Virus record (IMG/VR): IMGVR_UViG_3300025669_000001
Location: 1-52,303 of that record
Source of the DNA: a virus
Taxonomy: Duplodnaviria > Caudoviricetes
Direction: 5' to 3' (one strand)
Length of the DNA stretch: 52,303 bases
The notes under the pieces were generated by a model. It saw nothing but the letters and a program-made list of their open reading frames with translations, was not told the origin of the DNA and did no database searches. Shown here piece by piece: positions 6,312-43,699 of this stretch. Every line of letters starts with the position of its first letter. Within the stretch, counting starts at the first letter, position 1. The translations under genes and the position numbers were made by a program.

Positions 6312-6359
6312 ATTATATCCAAATCTCAACGATAACTTACCCCTTTAGTTATCAACTTG

Positions 6360-6392
6360 AACCCTTCATATTGTTTGAGGGGTTTTTGTTTT
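6360..6392 (+). terminator. Intrinsic terminator ending the late/lysis operon
   Basis: AACCCTTCA-TATTGTT-TGAGGGGTT followed by TTTGTTTT. Confidence 0.75.
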
Positions 6393-6464: not shown

Positions 6465-6493
6465 TTGACATTGATGTTAAGGTTTATTATCTT
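6465..6493 (+). promoter_or_regulatory. Sigma70-type promoter
   Basis: TTGACA-17-TATCTT with AT-rich upstream region. Confidence 0.7.
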
Positions 6494-8858: not shown

Positions 8859-9539
8859 ATGGCTGAAGTAAAATTGACTAAATATGTTGAGGGTTCAGAC
8901 GAGCAGATAGTTTTCTTAAAGAAGATTGAAAAGTTAAATTCTATCTTTGGCGGTGAACCCGATGAAAGATTTATTACAAATCTACAAAACCAGTTTAATT
9001 ATTTGCCTATCTCTCACTTGGAAACCCTGTTGGATGAATACTTTTTCGGTCACTGGTCAACTGTTAATTTTAAGTACCAACAGATAGCCAATGAGATTTG
9101 CGGTGATTTAGAATTAGTCGTAACGCATCCCATAACAGGGGAAACCCTAACGAGATCAGGCGCAGCAAGTGTTGTCATTATGCAAGACGCAAAGACAAAG
9201 CTGATAGATTTTGCTGAACACAAAAAACCGAATGCGCTTGTAATGGGGTTTCCTAAATTGAAAGCAGAGTGTATCAAAAATGCCATTTCAAGTTTGGGTA
9301 AAAAGTTCGGTAGGGATCTAAACAGAAAGATTGTTGATAACTATGCACCACTGTATAACCATGAACCAAAAGAAGAAATTGAAGTTATCCGAAAGAACAT
9401 CATTGACGAACTCGAAAATTATGCCGGTGAAGATAAGGAAATGATTAAAGAAATGTGCAGAGAGAAACATGAAGCCGGTGAATTCACAATGGTATTTGCA
9501 AAACAGATATGCCAGAAATTAAACTTGCCGGTATCGTAA
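8859..9539 (+). CDS. Single-strand annealing protein (Rad52/Sak-like)
   Basis: YLPISHLETLLDEYF..W and AECIKNAISSLGKKFGRDLNRK; adjacent to YqaJ exonuclease. Confidence 0.65.
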   Translation: MAEVKLTKYVEGSDEQIVFLKKIEKLNSIFGGEPDERFITNLQNQFNYLPISHLETLLDEYFFGHWSTVNFKYQQIANEICGDLELVVTHPITGETLTRSGAASVVIMQDAKTKLIDFAEHKKPNALVMGFPKLKAECIKNAISSLGKKFGRDLNRKIVDNYAPLYNHEPKEEIEVIRKNIIDELENYAGEDKEMIKEMCREKHEAGEFTMVFAKQICQKLNLPVS

Positions 9540-10144
9540 TGAGTGTTATAATACATGATGTTCAGCAGAACACAGACGAATGGCTAAAGTTGAGACTTGG
9601 AAAGTTTACGGGTTCACGGATTCCCAAATTGTTCATGGGCAAAAGCACAAAGGGTTACAATGAGTTAATAAACGAGATTGCCTATGAACGGTTAACCGGT
9701 AAAGTAATCGCTCACTTTTCAAACAAGTGGACAGACAGAGGGCATGAACTTGAAGCTTTAGCAATTGAAGAATATGAAAACAATACATTCAATAAGGTTA
9801 CAAGGGTTGGATTCGTTGAGTTAAATAAAGACGTAGGTGTTTCTCCTGACGGGCATATCGGAGAACACGGAATGATTCAGGTTAAGGCGTATGACTTTAC
9901 TCACATGTGCGAGTTTCATTTTTCCGGTAAGATTTCCAAGAATGAAGAGCTGCAATGTCAAGCCGAGATGTACGGATCTCAAAGACAGTGGAATATTTTA
10001 TACATCTATCATCCACAATTAAAGCCGTACCAATTTAAAATCCTGAGAAATAAAGAAACAATAACAGCGATCAAGCGAGAGATTGAACTTGCTAAAATCG
10101 AAGTTGTGAAACGTATGGAAGCATTGAAAGGTATTGTTAGGTGA
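9539..10144 (+). CDS. YqaJ/lambda-exonuclease-family nuclease
   Basis: QNTDEWLKLRLGKFTGS, RGHELE, GVSPDG..IQVK, QCQ motifs. Confidence 0.85.
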   Translation: MSVIIHDVQQNTDEWLKLRLGKFTGSRIPKLFMGKSTKGYNELINEIAYERLTGKVIAHFSNKWTDRGHELEALAIEEYENNTFNKVTRVGFVELNKDVGVSPDGHIGEHGMIQVKAYDFTHMCEFHFSGKISKNEELQCQAEMYGSQRQWNILYIYHPQLKPYQFKILRNKETITAIKREIELAKIEVVKRMEALKGIVR

Positions 10145-11124: not shown

Positions 11125-11180
11125 CATAATATTTCGTTACCATCTGACACGTTGGTGACGGAGATATAGGAGGGAGTGAA

Positions 11181-11372
11181 ATGTATAGAGTGAAATACGG
11201 TGGACGAAATAAAACGTCAGTCCGTGAGATCGAAACACGCTCAACTGATTCACTTGAATATGACTCAGGAAGTATTGTTGATATAGTGAATGGTGGATGC
11301 GTGGTTATCTTGACTAACGATTTGATGCTGTTAGAAGATTGGATGGACGTTGACGATATTGAATTAATTTAA
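11181..11372 (+). CDS. Hypothetical protein
   Basis: AGGAGG RBS. Confidence 0.6.
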   Translation: MYRVKYGGRNKTSVREIETRSTDSLEYDSGSIVDIVNGGCVVILTNDLMLLEDWMDVDDIELI

Positions 11373-14683: not shown

Positions 14684-14736
14684 TTTGTACATGACATGTG
14701 CAACGTGTACATAAAACGGTAAAATTTGTACATGAC
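14661..14736. repeat. Two 35-bp direct repeats at 41-bp period, containing four TGTACA palindromes
   Basis: AACATGTACAAGAAACACCATAATTTGTACATGAC / AACGTGTACATAAAACGGTAAAATTTGTACATGAC. Confidence 0.8.
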
Positions 14737-14935
14737 GTTAGCGATCCTTTGCAAATACTACCGAAATTCGTTAGATTCTGCAAACAATAACTAATGATTG
14801 TAAACTGAATAACAATAGAAATGCCCTAACGCCTCTCAATGAAGCGCACCACTAGACCTGAATGCTTACAGGTATCGTCCAGTTCGCAACTGGAAATGGG
14901 GAATAAGGTGTACAGCCATTTTATTAAACTTTTGC

Positions 14936-14964
14936 TTGACATTGATAATAAATATAGTTAACGT
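14936..14964 (+). promoter_or_regulatory. Sigma70-type promoter
   Basis: TTGACA-17-TAACGT directly upstream of structured leader 1. Confidence 0.65.
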
Positions 14965-14970
14965 ATAGGT

Positions 14971-15079
14971 GTACGGCAGACAGGAGTTTAATTTGAATAA
15001 TCATTGGTCACTCGGAACACTTTACTTTCTCCTTCTATGCCTGCCGTATGGATTCTGAAATTGTTTCGGGTGACCTTTT
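14971..15079 (+). ncRNA. Structured leader RNA copy 1 (A-B-A'-B' pseudoknot/attenuator)
   Basis: GTACGGCAG/CTGCCGTAT; AGGAG/CTCCT; GGTCACTCGGAACA/TGTTTCGGGTGACC followed by TTTT. Confidence 0.65.
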
Positions 15080-15097
15080 AAATATGAGGAATTTTCC

Positions 15098-15280
15098 ATG
15101 ACTAAAGAATAACTTGGACGTGACTATGATAAAGTTAAGGCTGATACCTTCGCTGATACCTTCAAGAAAGGCTTTGTGTGCTATGACAAAGATGGTGAGA
15201 CTTGTAGCTTTTTTGATTGCGAATGTCCAGAACCAGCATCAGAAATTTGCCATACTGACGGAATAGACACCTTGAAATAA
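15098..15280 (+). pseudogene. Small gene with in-frame TAA at codon 5
   Basis: GAGGA RBS; MTKE* (TAA 15110-15112) then 55 further open codons in the same frame. Confidence 0.5.
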
Positions 15281-15460
15281 TAACGGACATAGGCACTTTA
15301 ATGGTTCCTAGTTTCATAGAAAGTAACGAGGGTGCATACGGGCGCATTTTGGATGATAGGGAAGCGTTATTAATTATTAAACGATTAACCGAAAATTTGG
15401 GAAGTGCATAGATACGCCAGTAATCCTATTTTCTGGCAAACATTTGAACGGAGGTGAAGC

Positions 15461-15637
15461 GTGCGTAAATGTAAACACCCAATAGAAAAGAGTACGCTTA
15501 AAAACAGTTTCTACATCCCAGAAAGAAGATGTGTTACCGATCCTTACAATTATCAATACATGGTAAACACTAGGCTATGTGGAAAGTGTGGAAAGTATTT
15601 CATTGATGAAGGTTTTGAATTTATAGAAAGGGGTTGA
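15461..15637 (+). CDS. Small Zn-ribbon-like protein (not in ORF track)
   Basis: GGAGGT RBS, GTG start; CKH..RC..LCGKCG. Confidence 0.65.
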   Translation: MRKCKHPIEKSTLKNSFYIPERRCVTDPYNYQYMVNTRLCGKCGKYFIDEGFEFIERG

Positions 15638-15639
15638 CT

Positions 15640-15852
15640 ATGAGAACATTTGAAAAGTTTCCTGAAGATAAGATATGTCCAGTATGCAAAACAAACGATG
15701 ACAAAGAGTGTGTGCTAATTCCAATTGACGGAACGGATGAAGGTAATAATTGTGAAGCTGAAATTTTTCATGTCGAGTGCTTGGATTTAAATAAGTTCCG
15801 GTTTAAAAAAGAATTTGACTTTGTTTATTTGAAATTTTACATGGAGTATATA
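15640..15852 (+). CDS. Small Cys/His protein reading without stop into the downstream lipoprotein
   Basis: CPVCKT..ECVLIPIDGT..FHVECL; same frame as 15853. Confidence 0.5.
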
Positions 15853-16227
15853 GTGAAAAAGCACATCCTAACATTAATAACCATAGCATTAATTGCAACA
15901 TCATGTTCACTACCTACCGATCCAAAACCTAAGCTTGCTAACATGTACGGTGAAGTCTGTACTGGCCTTATGCAAACTATCAAGTACAGTGGCAGAGTCG
16001 AGTTGCAATACAACGGGGAGATAAGTTCATCCACTTTGCACAATCTCCACTTTGACGGCCCGTATTGCTTATATGATTTCACCTTTGAGAATATAGAGAT
16101 AGCCGGAAGCAAACAAGCTACATTTATCGTCAAGCTTATGAATGGGTTCGGGGCTGAGACTGTTTACGGTGACACTACTTTTGTTTTGAGAAAAGGTGAT
16201 AGCAGCTTTAGGTTGAATATTTTTTAG
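15853..16227 (+). CDS. Putative lipoprotein
   Basis: GGAG at 15843 and GTG 15853; MKKHILTLITIALIATS|C lipobox. Confidence 0.65.
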   Translation: MKKHILTLITIALIATSCSLPTDPKPKLANMYGEVCTGLMQTIKYSGRVELQYNGEISSSTLHNLHFDGPYCLYDFTFENIEIAGSKQATFIVKLMNGFGAETVYGDTTFVLRKGDSSFRLNIF

Positions 16228-16228
16228 C

Positions 16229-16257
16229 TTGACATTGACGGTAAAAAGCCGTAACTT
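16229..16257 (+). promoter_or_regulatory. Sigma70-type promoter of the replication operon
   Basis: TTGACA-17-TAACTT upstream of structured leader 2. Confidence 0.65.
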
Positions 16258-16270
16258 TAATTTAACATTG

Positions 16271-16386
16271 GTACGGCTACCAAGGAGAAGTAACTTCATG
16301 ATTAAATTTAATCCCCATTCAATGAGCGCACACGCTTCTCCATATAGCCGTATGGTTTTCTCGTGCCTTATTGGGTGGGGGTTTTT
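16271..16386 (+). ncRNA. Structured leader RNA copy 2 (A-B-A'-B' pseudoknot/attenuator)
   Basis: GTACGGCTA/TAGCCGTAT; GGAGAAG/CTTCTCC; ~20-bp stem ATCCCCATTCAATGAGCGCAC/GTGCCTTATTGGGTGGGGGT followed by a T tract. Confidence 0.7.
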
Positions 16387-16404
16387 GTATTATGAGGTGT
16401 TAGT

Positions 16405-16968
16405 ATGGATATGATTGAATATTTAAAAGGTGTTGATAGTTTTGAGGGGTTCAAGTTTAATATTTCAGATACGGCAATGTTGCCAGTAGTTATTGAATTT
16501 TTCATGAAAGAGTCCAGGGGCAACAATCTATTAAATATTTTCCTTGAAATTTATAAGATAAAAGAAAGAATGATTAAAGACCCAGAGTGTAAAAACATGG
16601 TAATTGGGGGTGACGTGAGGATCGTAAATATAGCCGTCAATAACCTATCTATTCGGCAACAGGGAATTATAAAGCGACTATTGTCTCACGGTGTGTATTC
16701 ATTGCGTGGATATATTCTAGAGTGCATAGAAAATTATCGCGCCGACACTTCATATATCCATAGAAGAAAAACTGCAAATTCTGAACTAGCAAATCAAACA
16801 TTGAGAAGAGAAGTTTTCAAAAGGTTTAGTTATGAGTGTGCTATCTGTCAGTCAAGGCATAATCTAGCAATAGATCACATTGTATCGGTTAAGGGTGGCG
16901 GTTCTAATGATATTGAAAACCTACAAGTGTTGTGTAAGTCTTGTAATTCATCCAAGGGCGCAAAATGA
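16405..16968 (+). CDS. HNH endonuclease
   Basis: C-terminal CAIC..LAIDHIVSVKGGGSNDIENLQVLCKSCNSSKG. Confidence 0.9.
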   Translation: MDMIEYLKGVDSFEGFKFNISDTAMLPVVIEFFMKESRGNNLLNIFLEIYKIKERMIKDPECKNMVIGGDVRIVNIAVNNLSIRQQGIIKRLLSHGVYSLRGYILECIENYRADTSYIHRRKTANSELANQTLRREVFKRFSYECAICQSRHNLAIDHIVSVKGGGSNDIENLQVLCKSCNSSKGAK

Positions 16969-17687
16969 ATAAGGCTCCTGCATTCCAATTCTACGTTAAA
17001 GACTGGTTATCATCAAAGAATGTCATCTGCATGACACCTGAACAGAGGGGTGCTTATATTCAATTAATGTGCCATGCGTGGAACTCTGACAGACAAGGAA
17101 CCCTACCCAATGACGATAATATACTTGCAGTTTTATCTGGACTAAATGGACGATGGGAAAAGGTTGGAGATCCAGTAAAAAAGATGTTTAAAATATCTGG
17201 AAGTCTGTTATACCATCCAAGACTTGTTGAAGAAAGAAAAAAACAAAAGGTCCGTAGCGACCAATGCAGAAAAGCAGGTAAGGCCAGTGCTGATAAGCGT
17301 TTAGGTGTCCCAACGTCCGTTCAACATAAGGCCAACACTTCTTCTTCATCTTCTACTGCTTCTTCACCTTCTCTTTCTATTGCAACAAATAAAGAAAACG
17401 TTGAGGCGTTCGATAAGTTTTGGGAAGCATATCCACGTAAGGTAGCAAAGCAAGAGACATTCACTTATTGGAAAAAGAATGTCACAAACTATCAAGCCAT
17501 AATGGATTCGTTGAAAGTTTATAAAAAAGATTTCCCAACCAAAGATCAATTAAAATTTATGCGACATCCAAAGAGATTTATATCTAACGATTTTTGGCGT
17601 AGCTTTATGCCTGAAGAAATAGACCCATCTAAAATGCAACCAGAGGTTAGGGATGCTTACAATATGTTACTGAATAAACAAGAATGA
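16965..17687 (+). CDS. Replication initiator, DUF1376/YdaU-like
   Basis: PAFQFYVKDWL..MTPEQRGAYIQLMCHAW; Ser-rich linker; FDKFWEAYPRK..HPKRFI; upstream of DnaB. Confidence 0.8.
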   Translation: MNKAPAFQFYVKDWLSSKNVICMTPEQRGAYIQLMCHAWNSDRQGTLPNDDNILAVLSGLNGRWEKVGDPVKKMFKISGSLLYHPRLVEERKKQKVRSDQCRKAGKASADKRLGVPTSVQHKANTSSSSSTASSPSLSIATNKENVEAFDKFWEAYPRKVAKQETFTYWKKNVTNYQAIMDSLKVYKKDFPTKDQLKFMRHPKRFISNDFWRSFMPEEIDPSKMQPEVRDAYNMLLNKQE

Positions 17688-17742
17688 TTTCAGTATTACC
17701 CAAACAAGTACAAGATAATTTAGCTAATTTTGGAGGTGAGAA

Positions 17743-17931
17743 ATGAAAGTGTTAACGGACGCAGAAATTAGTATGATTATAATAAAAGCAGAATCAGCTT
17801 GGAGTGTAAATAAAATACCTGTTAAATATAAACAAAATTTCATAACAACACTTGAATCCTTTATTAGGAAAGGTGGACTTGTTGAGAATATCTGCCCACA
17901 ATGCTTAGGCACGGGGCGGAAAGAAGTATGA
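17743..17931 (+). CDS. Small hypothetical protein
   Basis: GGAGGT RBS; C-terminal CPQCLGTG. Confidence 0.65.
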   Translation: MKVLTDAEISMIIIKAESAWSVNKIPVKYKQNFITTLESFIRKGGLVENICPQCLGTGRKEV

Positions 17932-19181
17932 ACCAAAGCCAAAACATATTTGACCGAGTTCCCCCACAAAGCTTAGATGCTGAAATGTCTTTACTTGGTT
18001 CTTTAATGCTTGACAATGAAGCAATAAACATCATAAGCCTAACCGGAACTGAATTCTACAAATCTGCACACCGTAGAATATTTGAGACTATTCGGGAAAT
18101 GGTGAATGCAAATATAGCGGTTGATTTAACAACCCTATCTGATGAATTAAAAACGAAGAAGCGACTTGACGACATTGGTGGGGCTTATTATTTAACTGAG
18201 CTATGCGAGGTTGTGCCATCAAGTGCCAATATTTCAGAATACGAAACCATTATTAAAACTAAGTGGAGATTGAGGCAACTTATTAAATTAGGCCACAATG
18301 TACAAAAGCAAGCACACGAAGGGAAAGAAGAAGTAAATGATATTGTCAATAGTGCGACAAGTGAATTGATTCAAGTATCATCGGTTGAGTCAAAGGGGAA
18401 AAGTATTGCAGACTTCCTGCATGAGTTTAATGATGATGTTGATAGGCGTAAAAATGGTGAAATTGTCCACGTACACGCCCCACTGATAGGTAATATAGAA
18501 CGGGGTGAGACTTGCATACTTGCTGCCCGCCCATCGGTCGGTAAGACCTCAATGGCAACGCAGATACTATTTGAATGTGGCGTTCCTTCAGGCTTGATAA
18601 TGCTTGAAAGTCAAGGAAAGAAAATTGCCGGTCGTATGTTGGCGCAAGTATCAGATGTTGATTTTGCAAGCATAATAGGTGGCAGTTTAGATAAAAGTCA
18701 ATTGGCTAAAGTTATTCCTGCTTCAACCGTATTAGCAGGCGCACCGATTGAGATTGAAGAACATACAGAAAAGATTGCAGAGATTTTGGCAATAGCGCAC
18801 CAATGGGTAATCAGGAAGCACATCCATGTTTTAGCTATAGATTACTTGCAATTAGTAGACGGTGGGAAAGCTGAGAATAAAAACTTAGAAGTTGACAAGA
18901 TCACAAAACAGTTAGTATTATTCGGAAAGAAAAATAACGTGGCAATGTTAATACTTGCACAATTAAACCGTATGGGAACTGATGAACCAGGACTGCACCA
19001 CTTACGAGACTCAGGCGGAATTGAACAGGCAGCGGACAAGGTTATACTTTTGTCAAGATCAGAAAAAACCAGCCCCTATAGAGTGAAATGCCACGTAGCA
19101 AAAAATAGAAATGGCGCAACTGGCAGTGAGGTTTTAAATTACAAGCCATCAACAATGACATTCAGCAAGGATACACAATGA
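17928..19181 (+). CDS. dnaB: Replicative DNA helicase
   Basis: PPQSLDAEMSLLGSL; Walker A AARPSVGKT; IDYLQL; LAQLNR; LRDSGGIEQAAD; KNRNG. Confidence 0.95.
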   Translation: MNQSQNIFDRVPPQSLDAEMSLLGSLMLDNEAINIISLTGTEFYKSAHRRIFETIREMVNANIAVDLTTLSDELKTKKRLDDIGGAYYLTELCEVVPSSANISEYETIIKTKWRLRQLIKLGHNVQKQAHEGKEEVNDIVNSATSELIQVSSVESKGKSIADFLHEFNDDVDRRKNGEIVHVHAPLIGNIERGETCILAARPSVGKTSMATQILFECGVPSGLIMLESQGKKIAGRMLAQVSDVDFASIIGGSLDKSQLAKVIPASTVLAGAPIEIEEHTEKIAEILAIAHQWVIRKHIHVLAIDYLQLVDGGKAENKNLEVDKITKQLVLFGKKNNVAMLILAQLNRMGTDEPGLHHLRDSGGIEQAADKVILLSRSEKTSPYRVKCHVAKNRNGATGSEVLNYKPSTMTFSKDTQ

Positions 19182-19408
19182 GTAATTATGAAAGTTTAGG
19201 AACCGTATTAAAAACACTACAAAGAAATAACTACAAAATAAAACAAAAGAGGCAAATTATGTCAATGTATGAATGCGATAAATGTGGACAGTGGAGAGAT
19301 TCAGACGATGGTTGCGCACCTTCACCGGATGGTAGTTTGGATTTAGTTTGTCCTGAGTGCTTTGATGAACTTGAAGAAATTAAGAAAGGAGAATCAAAAT
19401 GCAAGTAA
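19178..19408 (+). CDS. Small Zn-binding protein
   Basis: YECDKCG..LVCPEC. Confidence 0.6.
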   Translation: MSNYESLGTVLKTLQRNNYKIKQKRQIMSMYECDKCGQWRDSDDGCAPSPDGSLDLVCPECFDELEEIKKGESKCK

Positions 19409-20580
19409 TATCTACAGAAAAAGTACCTATCAAGATGTGGCTACACGAAATAGAAGATGGGGCATTGCAACAGGCTAAGAATTTAGCGAACTTACCATTC
19501 ACTTTTAAACATGTGGCAATCATGCCGGACTCGCATCAAGGTTACGGAATGCCAATTGGCGGCGTACTCGCTACCGTAGGCGTGGTTATACCCAATGCGG
19601 TAGGCGTTGATATAGGGTGTGGCATGTGTGCTGTTAAAACGTCCCTAACCGATTTGACTGAATTACAGTTGAAACAAATTATGGGTGGATCTGCTGATTT
19701 TAAGGGCGGTATCAGGGGCCGTGTTCCGGTCGGGCGTAACCACAATAAGAAAGATCAAGAGTGGAGTGGATTTTTATTTGCTCCTGACATACCGATTATT
19801 CAGCAAGAGTTGAAATCTGCACGGAAACAACTTGGAACGCTTGGTGGTGGAAATCATTTCATTGAAATACAAAAAGGTGACGATGGTTTTATATGGGTGA
19901 TGGTTCATTCTGGCAGTAGGAACTTCGGATACAAGATAGCGAAGGAATATAATAAACTTGCTCAGAAACTTTGTACTAGATGGTATTCAAACGTACCTAG
20001 TTTTAAGGGTGAAGATGGTCTTGCCTTTTTACCTATCGATACTTACGAAGCAAAAGAATATATGGAAGCAATGAATTACGCCCTTGATTTTGCGTATATT
20101 AACAGGCGAATTATGCTTAGAGAAATAAAGAAAGCGTTTAATGATGTGGTTGAATGTGAGTTTGAACCAGAAATAAACATGCACCACAATTACGCTAGAT
20201 GGGAAAACCATTTCGGCAAAAACGTTATCTTACACCGTAAGGGCGCAACGTCTGCGAGACTTGGAGAGGTTGGTATTATACCCGGATCACAGGGAACATC
20301 TTCGTATATCGTTGAGGGGCTTGGCAATCCTGAATCGTTTAACTCATGCTCACACGGGGCAGGTCGCAAAATGAGCAGAACTGCAGCAAAGAACAACCTT
20401 GATTTAAACGCTCAGATTAAATTGATGGACGACATGGGTGTCATCCACGGAATACGACATGAAGGAAACCTTGACGAAGCACCGGGAGCATACAAAGATA
20501 TAGATACAGTTATGGATAATCAATCTGACTTGGTTAAAATTAAGGTTAAATTGAAACCATTAGCAGTAATAAAGGGTTAG
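19399..20580 (+). CDS. rtcB: RtcB-family RNA ligase
   Basis: MPDSHQGYGMPIGG, VGVDIGCGM, GTLGGGNHFIE, HSGSR, HHNY, HRKGAT, IPGSQG, SCSHGAGR, DEAPGAYK. Confidence 0.97.
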   Translation: MQVISTEKVPIKMWLHEIEDGALQQAKNLANLPFTFKHVAIMPDSHQGYGMPIGGVLATVGVVIPNAVGVDIGCGMCAVKTSLTDLTELQLKQIMGGSADFKGGIRGRVPVGRNHNKKDQEWSGFLFAPDIPIIQQELKSARKQLGTLGGGNHFIEIQKGDDGFIWVMVHSGSRNFGYKIAKEYNKLAQKLCTRWYSNVPSFKGEDGLAFLPIDTYEAKEYMEAMNYALDFAYINRRIMLREIKKAFNDVVECEFEPEINMHHNYARWENHFGKNVILHRKGATSARLGEVGIIPGSQGTSSYIVEGLGNPESFNSCSHGAGRKMSRTAAKNNLDLNAQIKLMDDMGVIHGIRHEGNLDEAPGAYKDIDTVMDNQSDLVKIKVKLKPLAVIKG

Positions 20581-42592: not shown

Positions 42593-43552
42593 ATGAAGTT
42601 TAGAAATACATTAATAGTTCTGCTTTGCCTCTTACTTGTTGGTGTTGCATTTGGTCAGACTCCAAGACCTTCAGTGAGAACATCATGGTTTGAAACAGTA
42701 CAGTGGATTTTGACAGGTTCGGAAACGTTAACCAATAAAACGCTAACATCCCCAACTATTGACGGGTTAATGACATTGACCACAGTAGCAACTGGAATTG
42801 ATATTAACGGAACGTCTGCCGGTTTAGACATTAATCATTATTCAGTAGATACGGATTTTGATCAAGGCGCAGTCGCTGCCGGTGCTTATCTCAGTCGTGG
42901 CAATATTACTGGAGTAGGTTCTTATGTTGATTGCATTGGTAACATTGATCATGTATACGCTACTCGTGGCGGTTCTTACATGGCTATGGCCGCAGATGCT
43001 GAAGTAAACCAGTTTTATGGCGGGATGTTTAACGCTAACGCCTCAGGTGCACACACACTCACATTACATGATGGCTTGGTTGGATTAAAGTCAACTGTCA
43101 CCGTAGACGCTGGCGTGACCGATGTAACCGGTGGAATCGTTGCTGGGCTGTTTGTAAACACTCAGCCGATAGCAAAAAATCTTACCTCGGCAACTTATGG
43201 AATCTATGAAAAGATTGGTGGTTACACTGATTATGGAATGGCTGTTCAGGTTGGTGCAAACAACACGACTTCGGGGATACGGATTCAGGCAACTGATTCC
43301 GCAGTACTTCCAAATGGTCTTGAGATTAGTACAAATGTAGGAACGATACAGGCCAACATTCTAACGTCAAGTGGTGCTAAGATTTTCACAGGTACTGCCG
43401 CTAATGGCGATGCTGTTTATGCAGAGGTTGGTGCTTATGATGCAATAGGTTCTATCTATTTAAATCACACTAACGGTTATATCTATATTCAGGTTGCTAA
43501 TGCTGGATCAGAATCTGATTGGTATAAAGTAACTGCTACTAACGCAGATTAA
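42593..43552 (+). CDS. Signal-peptide-bearing fibre/decoration-like protein
   Basis: MKFRNTLIVLLCLLLVGVAFG|Q; ETLTNKTLTSPTI; G/A/T-rich; C-terminal GSIYL..IYI..W. Confidence 0.7.
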   Translation: MKFRNTLIVLLCLLLVGVAFGQTPRPSVRTSWFETVQWILTGSETLTNKTLTSPTIDGLMTLTTVATGIDINGTSAGLDINHYSVDTDFDQGAVAAGAYLSRGNITGVGSYVDCIGNIDHVYATRGGSYMAMAADAEVNQFYGGMFNANASGAHTLTLHDGLVGLKSTVTVDAGVTDVTGGIVAGLFVNTQPIAKNLTSATYGIYEKIGGYTDYGMAVQVGANNTTSGIRIQATDSAVLPNGLEISTNVGTIQANILTSSGAKIFTGTAANGDAVYAEVGAYDAIGSIYLNHTNGYIYIQVANAGSESDWYKVTATNAD

Positions 43553-43559
43553 GTAACAG

Positions 43560-43595
43560 CTTTACAGGCGACCTCTAAGCAGGTCGCCTGTAAAG
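43560..43595. repeat. Perfect 15-bp inverted repeat
   Basis: CTTTACAGGCGACCT-CTAAGC-AGGTCGCCTGTAAAG; no U tract. Confidence 0.9.
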
Positions 43596-43699
43596 GGATA
43601 CAACGGGTACGGCACTGACTTTAAGTTTAACACAGGACGGGAATTGTACCAATAAATTCAGATTAGAAGAGAGAAACAGAAAACACAAAAGGGGTTACA

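Follow-up and report, generated by a model that had tools for sequence, protein, structure and literature searches.

Interleaved A/A′ and B/B′ helices in two leader RNAs of a phage genome, candidate translation-coupled attenuators

Introduction

To our knowledge, it is mostly unknown how the expression of replication genes is timed and limited in uncultured phages. In the leader-peptide attenuators of pyrBI and of the trp, phe and his operons, a ribosome on a short leader open reading frame (ORF) decides whether the terminator folds, and the ORF of pyrBI runs through the attenuator. The attenuator-derived small RNA rnTrpL is reportedly released and able to act in trans. The CI RNA of P4 (seqA/seqC) originates from the leader of the operon that it controls and pairs with boxes located there, resulting in premature termination; we know of no ORF that spans the P4 leader. 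In the initiator leaders of the plasmids ColIb-P9 (repY/repZ and Inc RNA) and R1 (tap/repA and CopA), the stop codon of a short ORF overlaps the initiator start, the antisense RNA is transcribed from the opposite strand, a pseudoknot activates initiator translation and no terminator is present. Here, two copies of a leader RNA with two interleaved helices, A/A′ and B/B′, are described, which are located at 14971-15079 and 16271-16386 on the + strand of the virus record IMGVR_UViG_3300025669_000001. The whole stretch, a complete record of 52,303 bp with direct terminal repeats, is referred to as the window.

A further related group are the c4 RNAs of the phages P1 and P7 (Rfam clan CL00128: C4 RF01695, c4-a1b1 RF03163, c4-2 RF02944). 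For C4, PMC5320573 describes a two-part b′/a′ logic and reports an RNase P site, GGW, at the 5′ end, which is located at the base of the outer stem; c4-a1b1 and c4-2 are reportedly described in the supplements of PMC2864571 and PMC5737381.

Two leaders with the same architecture

Both copies directly follow a putative phage-specific TTGACA promoter and are composed of the following parts, the transcription start sites being predictions placed from the promoter sequence:

14936-14964, + strand: promoter of copy 1 (TTGACA 14936-41, 17-nt spacer, TAACGT 14959-64)
14971-14986, + strand: A of copy 1, GTACGGCAGACAGGAG, as found in the fold of the RNA ending after A′
14987-15005, + strand: AU-rich spacer of copy 1
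15006-15019, + strand: B of copy 1, 5′ arm of a 14-bp hairpin
15029-15051, + strand: A′ of copy 1 in the hairpin loop (CTCC 15029-32, CTGCCGTAT 15041-49)
15062-15079, + strand: B′ of copy 1 (15062-75), terminator-like 3′ arm, and TTTT (15076-79)
16229-16257, + strand: promoter of copy 2 (TTGACA 16229-34, 17-nt spacer, TAACTT 16252-57)
16271-16290, + strand: A of copy 2, as found in the fold of the RNA ending after A′
16311-16331, + strand: B of copy 2, 5′ arm of a hairpin of about 17-21 bp
16335-16355, + strand: A′ of copy 2 in the hairpin loop (CTTCTCC 16335-41, TAGCCGTAT 16345-53)
16363-16386, + strand: B′ of copy 2 (16363-81) and TTTTT (16382-86)

An initial annotation of the DNA had proposed this interleaved order with a T tract behind two promoters, and it was borne out at both sites. 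In copy 1, GTACGGCAG of A pairs with CTGCCGTAT and AGGAG pairs with CTCCT (A:A′ duplex −19.9 kcal/mol); in copy 2, GTACGGCTA pairs with TAGCCGTAT and GGAGAAG with CTTCTCC (−25.3 kcal/mol). Both copies have GTACGGC and GGAG in A and, in A′, CTCC as well as GCCGTATGG. The leaders are the only two places among the 52,303 bases at which GCCGTATGG is present. The compensatory change claimed in the initial annotation is present in the sequence: positions 8-9 of the 9-bp A/A′ stem read AG/CT in copy 1 and TA/TA in copy 2. The sequences of B/B′ are, as also claimed, unrelated between the copies and nevertheless form helices of 14 bp (copy 1) and about 17-21 bp (copy 2).

The loops comprise 42 nt in copy 1 and 40 nt in copy 2 (31 nt if its GCAC/GUGC extension is paired). 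A terminator scan with loops of 3-8 nt lists neither leader hairpin; their loops are larger, and 4 and 5 T follow. Within the loop, A′ is 9-12 nt away from B′ and 3-9 nt away from B and does not overlap the terminator arms. Both A′ elements have an alternative small inner hairpin (15034-40 with 15046-52 in copy 1; CCATAT/GTATGG, 16340-45 with 16350-55, in copy 2), in whose 5′ arm three positions differ between the copies with the pairing kept at each. A Shine-Dalgarno (SD) block, TATGAGG, is located 3′ of the T tract in both copies.

Folding energies and chance controls

In the folds of the full-length leaders, A′ sits in the loop of the B/B′ hairpin (copy 1: −29.1 kcal/mol, z −2.4; copy 2: −39.2 kcal/mol, z −3.7), in agreement with the terminator-like hairpin described in the initial annotation. 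If the RNA ends just after A′, A/A′ forms instead (copy 1: −18.5 kcal/mol, z −1.5; copy 2: −25.2 kcal/mol, z −4.6), and no fold of the nascent RNA is better than this one until B′ is made. For both helices together, the energy of the A:A′ duplex was added to that of the hairpin folded with A and A′ kept unpaired; the sums are −40.2 and −54.0 kcal/mol vs −29.1 and −39.2 kcal/mol for the best nested folds. A typical pseudoknot penalty of about 7-10 kcal/mol would be smaller than the energy gain of both helices and would not cancel it. By our own estimate, the linkers of 9-12 nt and 3-9 nt would leave room for a pseudoknot.

A MAFFT alignment of the two copies was out of register, and for this reason a script descriptor was used in place of a covariance model. 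The sequence-blind descriptor called for a B/B′ helix of ≥12 bp around a loop of 18-55 nt, a T4 tract, and pairing of the loop with the preceding 70 nt over ≥8 bp. It detected only the two leaders on both strands of the window, and 20 block shuffles resulted in 2 matches in total. For the A..A′ motif pair, 239 chance matches were found in other fetched DNA, of which none (0/239) combined an interleaved helix of ≥14 bp with a T-rich stretch behind it (5 or more T in 8 positions). We consider it highly likely that the leader element is real.

The folds bear on a translation-independent two-state switch, in which A/A′ would be an antiterminator that excludes B/B′ sterically or topologically, and a phage or host factor on the conserved GUACGGC or GCCGUAUGG would pick the state. 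A/A′ is the first helix to form in the nascent RNA, the terminator is more stable than a forced A/A′ fold by about 5.5 kcal/mol (−29.1 vs −23.3 and −39.2 vs −33.8 kcal/mol), and the combination of a fixed A/A′ sequence with a free B/B′ sequence resembles a factor-binding site. We nevertheless regard such a switch as unlikely, since A′ lies off both terminator arms in the window, the linkers would leave the mentioned room for a pseudoknot, no candidate RNA-binding regulator was detected among the proteins scanned, and the upstream ORF described below would be unexplained. The initial annotation had suggested an attenuator/antiterminator or a processed small RNA. An attenuator or small RNA fits best; the simple antiterminator role of A/A′ is doubtful because A′ has no overlap with the terminator arms.

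The heptamer GTACGGC occurs 10 times in the window vs 1.9 times expected (10024, 10688, 12850, 14971, 16271, 22290, 26788, 26934, 41799 and 43607), and 0/100 shuffles reach 10. Apart from the two leader copies and the site at 43607, these sites are located inside ORFs. This excess, together with exact inverted 7-9-mers that are equally spaced in both copies, would suit a DNA-level element, i.e. GTACGGC/GCCGTAT as inverted operator half-sites with a repressor looping ~70 bp at the two promoters. Such operators are extremely improbable in our view: the pairing goes beyond the core, with the compensatory AG/CT vs TA/TA and the GGAG/CTCC helix, relatives in other phages keep the pairing and not the sequence, and the other GTACGGC sites are located in genes without promoters. 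Next to the site at 43607, within 43560-43613, a 15-bp hairpin was observed after a 319-amino-acid ORF (42593-43552); this GTACGGC is located 12 nt downstream of the hairpin in an intergenic gap of 147 nt.

A short upstream ORF through the hairpin

The SD-like GGAG in A, already pointed out in the initial annotation, is very probably a real ribosome-binding site, and it would serve a short upstream ORF (uORF) that had been missed there:

16298-16414, + strand: uORF of copy 2, ATG start, 38 codons, through B, A′, B′ and the T tract
14993-15058, + strand: uORF of copy 1, 21 codons, with its TTG start 6 nt 3′ of AGGAG

In copy 2, the ATG (16298) is located 10 nt after the GGAG of A and the TGA (16412-14) 5-7 nt inside the HNH gene (ATG 16405). 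In copy 1, the TGA is located 3 nt before B′, which is not spanned. A is best read as the putative region in which ribosomes bind to a leader frame that would be translated but non-coding, and the A-rich spacer as the unstructured start of this frame. As the GGAG would serve an uORF running through the hairpin, the likely mechanism shifts to translation-coupled attenuation.

A spanning uORF was identified in 9/11 elements, namely copy 2 and the elements L024, L088, L101, L065-67, L057, L090, L338 and L367 from other phages (see below). It was defined as an ORF that reads across B, A′, B′ and the T tract, with its start codon −7 to +27 nt relative to the beginning of A and its stop −12 to +15 nt from the next gene start. 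The junctions between uORF stop and next start are ATGA, TGATG or GTGA overlaps. Shuffled sequences contain such an ORF in 6-16% of cases per element, resulting in a Poisson-binomial P of 8e-8; for the ATG-started spanning uORFs, present in 8/11 elements, P is 5e-9. In L010, which was looked at after the 11-element test, a spanning uORF is also present.

The uORF peptide is not conserved and is without purifying selection. Between L088 and L101, the uORF substitutions are distributed over the codon positions as 9/10/7, and the changed codons comprise 3 synonymous and 18 non-synonymous ones; the conserved GCCGTATGG falls into one reading frame in copy 1 and into another in copy 2. ORFs of 21-50 codons with an SD or a promoter-proximal ATG are present in most elements and might encode functional micro-proteins, in which case the hairpins would be ordinary terminators or stabilisers and the A/A′ pairing fortuitous. 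This is very unlikely: in addition to the lack of selection on the peptide and the different reading frames, A/A′ covaries and recurs in unrelated sequences, and a terminator within the gene would defeat the gene.

The same architecture in other phages

Loci encoding relatives of the DUF1376 initiator of the window were fetched and their upstream DNA was scanned by descriptor and by eye. None of the fetched initiator relatives is a close one: the identities do not exceed 53% and cover only part of the protein. The architecture recurs before DUF1376 initiator operons in at least 10 other phage contigs:

L024
L088/L101
L065-67
L057/60
L090
L338/339
L362
L367
L010/98

The recurring order is TTGACA promoter, A near the predicted start, A-rich spacer, B, A′ loop, B′, T tract, SD and gene, and the leaders of the relatives have no sequence similarity to the window copies. 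A 10-mer, TGAATAATCA, is shared between the A-rich spacer of copy 1 (14995-15004) and the otherwise unrelated L367 leader (~2373-2382).

The initiator is the directly following gene in L101, L065-67, L057/60, L338, L362 and L367, and one or two genes are located between leader and initiator in L024, L088, L090, L010 and the window. These intervening genes include the HNH gene of the window (16405-16968) and a T5orf172/MUG113 nuclease-like gene in L090 (562-1050); in L088, the intervening gene of 221 amino acids (287-952) is missing from the 84%-identical L101. They look like mobile, homing-type insertions at a preferred spot behind the leader of the initiator operon.

A relaxed form of the descriptor was applied to 102 non-identical initiator loci (113,745 nt per strand) and resulted in 16 matches on the gene strand and 9 on the opposite strand; 5/16 gene-strand matches end 22-28 nt before the initiator start. 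No such leader was found before the relatives in metagenome-assembled genomes, and in L335, the closest initiator relative (53% identity), coding DNA is located directly upstream without a leader.

The only usable pair for covariation is L088 and L101 (84% identical). Among 22 pairs, 4 are changed on both sides (2 in A/A′ and 2 in B/B′), one is changed from U.G to C-G and two pairs at helix ends are lost; 95.5% of the cells are paired. If the 3′ partners are slid by 1-3 columns, 36-48% are paired with 0 double changes. The shuffle control (38/500) is weak with two sequences.

In several relatives, A′ directly abuts B′, so that the two helices could stack. This favours stacking over the exclusion that a two-state switch needs. 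In L057 and only there, A′ overlaps B′ by 4 nt, a geometry that would suit such a switch.

Search for known families and sequence homologues

The whole window was searched against Rfam at gathering thresholds, which resulted in 0 matches, including riboswitch, ribozyme, leader and CRISPR-repeat families. In the region 14800-16500, only three chance-level matches (E 3.6-8.7) were found at E ≤ 10. A′ of copy 1 has a tentative likeness to a CRISPR repeat; no CRISPR-DR family was matched in this region. In line with the initial annotation, no Rfam family is thus matched by the leaders, C4 and c4-2 included. The self-cleavage considered there found no support, as no ribozyme family was matched at E ≤ 10.

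Sequence patterns were searched in contig collections. For GTACGGC-N4-7-GGAG-N40-70-GCCGTATGG, 6 stretches were found in viral_contigs, all of them chance matches in high-GC coding DNA. The looser GTACGGC-N50-80-GCCGTATGG resulted in at least 116 stretches and the strict pattern in genome_contigs in at least 120; the hairpin is present in none of the matches listed for either. No sequence homologue of the leaders was found in the viral, metagenome or genome collections among the matches listed.

The P1 record was fetched as a control. It contains, in this order, the promoter P1c4, a1 and b1 (48255-76), C4, and a2 and b2 at the icd ribosome site, and its C4 was detected with 68.8 bits (RF01695, cut-off 45) and its c4-a1b1 with 51 bits. 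Of the relatives, the L090 hairpin reached 39.6 bits on c4-2 (RF02944; E 3e-5 in 33 kb; cut-off 41). It is close to c4-2 in the first inner hairpin and carries A′ in the loop of the second. The relatives other than L090 have no match to any c4 model. The likeness to P1 C4 drawn in the initial annotation is apt, as an upstream box complementary to the loop of a long-stemmed leader RNA corresponds to the a1/b1-C4 layout.

Possible action in trans

The cores of A and A′ are identical between the copies and B/B′ is unrelated. As a device acting only in cis need not keep A/A′ identical while B/B′ diverges, this is the main argument for an action in trans. The cross duplexes have −17.4 kcal/mol (A′ of copy 1 with A of copy 2) and −16.2 kcal/mol (A′ of copy 2 with A of copy 1), each ranking 6th of 85 translation starts. 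A released leader RNA probably also pairs in trans with A of both leaders.

Further putative sites were searched in the window. The motif ACGG-N6-7-GGAG occurs 4 times on the + strand vs 1.15 times expected (2.7% of shuffles). TGACGG-NN-ATAT-N-GGAG is present at 9847-9863 and 11156-11172 and is complementary to A′ of copy 2 in blocks of 4 + 4 + 6 bp. The site at 11156-11172, which is also one of the four ACGG-N6-7-GGAG motifs, is the SD of a 63-amino-acid ORF (11181-11372); the site at 9847-9863 is located inside a YqaJ-like exonuclease gene (9509-10144). The sites at 11158 and 9849 are only a lead, since 9849 is inside the YqaJ gene. Whole-genome duplex folding was too noisy to name targets. 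When A′ was compared with the next ribosome sites, the fraction of background windows that are as good or better was 0.91 (15098), 0.23 (16405) and 0.72 (16965), vs 0.034 for P1. In L088, the A box (157-168) is identical over 12 nt to the start region of its own initiator (943-954), so that A′ is complementary to either of them. The A′ of L362 can pair with the initiator start over 7 bp; that of L101 cannot.

These data bear on the possibility that the leaders are solely the source of a c4/CI-type antisense small RNA. The B-A′-B′ hairpin would be stable, terminated at the U tract and maybe trimmed at its 5′ end, A′ would repress in trans through an anti-SD CUCC and a specificity part GCCGUAU, A would be an a1/b1-like site and the spanning ORF incidental. 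The gene order of P1 with a2/b2 at the icd ribosome site, the 39.6 bits of L090 on c4-2 with A′ in the second inner-hairpin loop, the identity of A/A′ in both copies, the 12 nt shared by A and the initiator start in L088 and the excess of ACGG-N6-7-GGAG on the + strand, one of which is the SD of the ORF at 11181, are consistent with it; the two-part A′ moreover mirrors the b′/a′ logic given in PMC5320573. The window has no C4, c4-2 or c4-a1b1 match and one inner hairpin, however, and no complementary site was found at the ribosome site of the next gene (0.91 for copy 1; 0.23 and 0.72 for copy 2). Furthermore, the 9849 site is inside the YqaJ gene, A′ of L101 is unlike its initiator start, and the spanning uORF (P 8e-8), which has no counterpart in P1, would be unexplained. 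We regard an antisense RNA as the sole function as rather doubtful.

Genomic context of the leaders

The extended −35 consensus GCTTGACATTGA followed by a 17-nt spacer and TAnnTT is common to six intergenic promoters (6465, 14936, 16229, 24674, 34776 and 36858; extended form gcTTGACATTgayGTTAA). The −35 regions of the two leader promoters are a 23-nt repeat with 83% identity. A long structured leader follows only the promoters at 14936 and 16229; the other four lead directly to an SD. Consensus promoter and terminator scans of the window revealed no enrichment vs shuffles, and no opposite-strand promoter is evident at the leaders in these scans. A strong terminator-like hairpin (6359-6385) is located 5′ of the promoter at 6465.

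As stated in the initial annotation, copy 2 heads an operon of HNH, initiator, DnaB and RtcB genes, which was annotated with Pfam and PHROGs:

16405-20580, + strand: operon led by copy 2
16405-16968, + strand: HNH endonuclease
16965-17687, + strand: DUF1376 initiator/primosomal protein
17901-19181, + strand: DnaB helicase
19399-20580, + strand: RtcB ligase

Upstream of copy 2, the ORF 15842-16227 has a lipoprotein-like signal (..LITIALIATSC.., noticed on visual inspection of the translation). The first ORF after copy 1 (15098-15280) consists of ATG and three codons followed by an in-frame TAA (15110-12); the same frame after the TAA is a plausible Cys-rich sequence of 55 residues to 15278 without an ordinary start codon. 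Reading it through with TAA as Q resulted in no Pfam match. A sequencing error, a mini-ORF or a recoding event could each account for this oddity. Inside the odd ORF, the 12-mer GCTGATACCTTC is exactly duplicated in tandem (15140-15163). The 250-nt stretch 5′ of the copy 1 promoter (14684-14935) is non-coding and includes AGGTGTACAGC, which nearly repeats the beginning of A (repeat D16), as well as an abiF RNA match at chance level (E 3.6).

All long ORFs of the window are located on the + strand, and the G + C content is 0.36-0.42. No tRNA genes were found in the 52,303 bp. Nucleotide and protein comparisons revealed no close relative of the window, cultured or uncultured: a BLASTN search of cultured phages with 14800-17000 and a comparison of the terminase-size ORF (99-1838) with phages matched nothing, the matches of DnaB all have less than 33% identity, and no relative of DnaB was found in viral_contigs. 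The leader region is present in 24 public runs, all of which are salt-lake metagenomes (DNA), and no RNA datasets are among the runs listed. The contigs from four further runs are identical to the window, with some bins not covered, and for this reason offer no natural variants for testing the pairing.

Proposed mechanism and points against it

The reading that we prefer, and to which we give an even chance, is a translation-coupled attenuator in which the ribosome-binding site of the uORF docks into the terminator loop. Each copy would be a leader of ~105-115 nt of a transcript from a host-type promoter. A, at the 5′ end, would be the ribosome-binding region of the uORF, with GGAG as SD and a TTG or ATG 6-10 nt further on, and the AU-rich spacer would be the unstructured start of the uORF. 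B/B′ and the U tract would form an intrinsic-terminator-type hairpin inside the uORF (copy 2) or just after it (copy 1), displaying A′ in its loop as an antisense sequence to A. If a ribosome loads on A and trails the polymerase, A′ and B/B′ would be kept unfolded, which would result in read-through into the operon, and the uORF would end at the start of the next gene. If no ribosome has loaded before A′ is made, A would dock on A′ and B/B′ would form as a pseudoknot or stacked helix; in this docked state, transcription would end at the U tract with the ribosome site locked. The released short RNA might act in trans on both leaders, providing negative feedback and tying the two operons together, as in P1 c4 and P4 CI.

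Several points weigh against the translation-coupled attenuator. Copy 1 fits less well, having a TTG start, a stop before B′, only 4 U and the odd start of the downstream gene; copy 1 and L362 (2/11) have no spanning ORF as defined above. The main genes carry their own exposed SDs, so that coupling is not obviously needed for their translation. The start sites, the 3′ ends at the U tracts and the translation of the uORFs are predictions. If A/A′ and B/B′ were mutually exclusive, A/A′ would be an antiterminator and the logic would change. C4 (RF01695) and c4-2 (RF02944), sought singly in the whole phage at E ≤ 10, had no match. Homology between the window copies and the relatives can only be presumed, as they share no sequence, and the argument consists of shared architecture and gene context. 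The 11 elements were picked on RNA architecture and promoter context, L057, L338 and L367 by eye, and L088 and L101 are not independent among them. Finally, several descriptor matches were unconvincing: L072 and L356 are at the right position without promoter or uORF, and L351, L075, L039, L069, L355 and a second match in L367 were set aside.

A more far-reaching form of the translation-coupled attenuator, a ‘start-site-sensing terminator’, is put forward only tentatively. Here, docking of the ribosome-binding site would be needed for termination, the aborted leaders would be antisense RNAs that close both operons, and the device would be widespread before DUF1376 initiators. If this is true, the replication operon would be launched only when ribosomes load fast enough. 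In the open-access literature searched, no description of such a leader before phage initiators or of such a link between transcription termination and translation initiation was found.

The element is a compact putative RNA device with free sequence and fixed architecture before one initiator family. It would make an Rfam-type family defined by a pseudoknot and a non-conserved spanning ORF, features that are missed by ordinary covariance-model scans.

Comparison with known systems

The two leaders resemble the c4 RNAs of P1 and P7 in being promoter-proximal with a long outer stem, in showing an antisense sequence in internal loops with the anti-SD part 5′ of the specificity part, and in having a complementary upstream box in the same transcript (a1/b1), the window A pairing with A′ over 9 + 4-7 bp. 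Unlike c4, the window copies match no c4 model and have one inner hairpin, whereas C4 has two. A′ of the window takes in the 5′ junction and the inner hairpin with its loop; in C4, a hairpin loop holds b′ and the 3′ junction strand holds a′. The window hairpin is followed by a U tract and is located within the upstream ORF, whereas P1 has stops in all three frames across c4. The window moreover has no a2/b2-type site at the ribosome site of the next gene, and its operon is one for replication and not for an antirepressor. B of copy 1 begins with GGT, like the C4 GGW site reported in PMC5320573; B of copy 2 does not.

With P4 CI, the leaders would share a leader-derived feedback RNA, as proposed here. 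They differ in that there is no sequence or Rfam link, and the P4 boxes are located on both sides of the RNA.

Like the leader-peptide attenuators, the window leaders have a short, putatively translatable ORF ahead of (copy 1) or through (copy 2) a terminator-like hairpin. Unlike them, no antiterminator shares terminator bases in the window, and no runs of regulatory codons were noticed, a systematic analysis of which was not made. A new feature is the pairing of the leader ORF's own putative ribosome-binding site with the terminator loop, and the operon is a phage replication operon.

The plasmid initiator leaders have in common with the window a short ORF before an initiator, long-range pairing between a loop and a single strand and, as proposed here, antisense feedback. 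The window differs in having a hairpin with a U tract and no evident opposite-strand promoter. The element may thus connect the c4/CI antisense RNAs with classical attenuators, and if the ‘start-site-sensing terminator’ holds true, one RNA of 110 nt would join leader-peptide attenuation, the pseudoknots of plasmid copy control and the c4/CI immunity RNAs.

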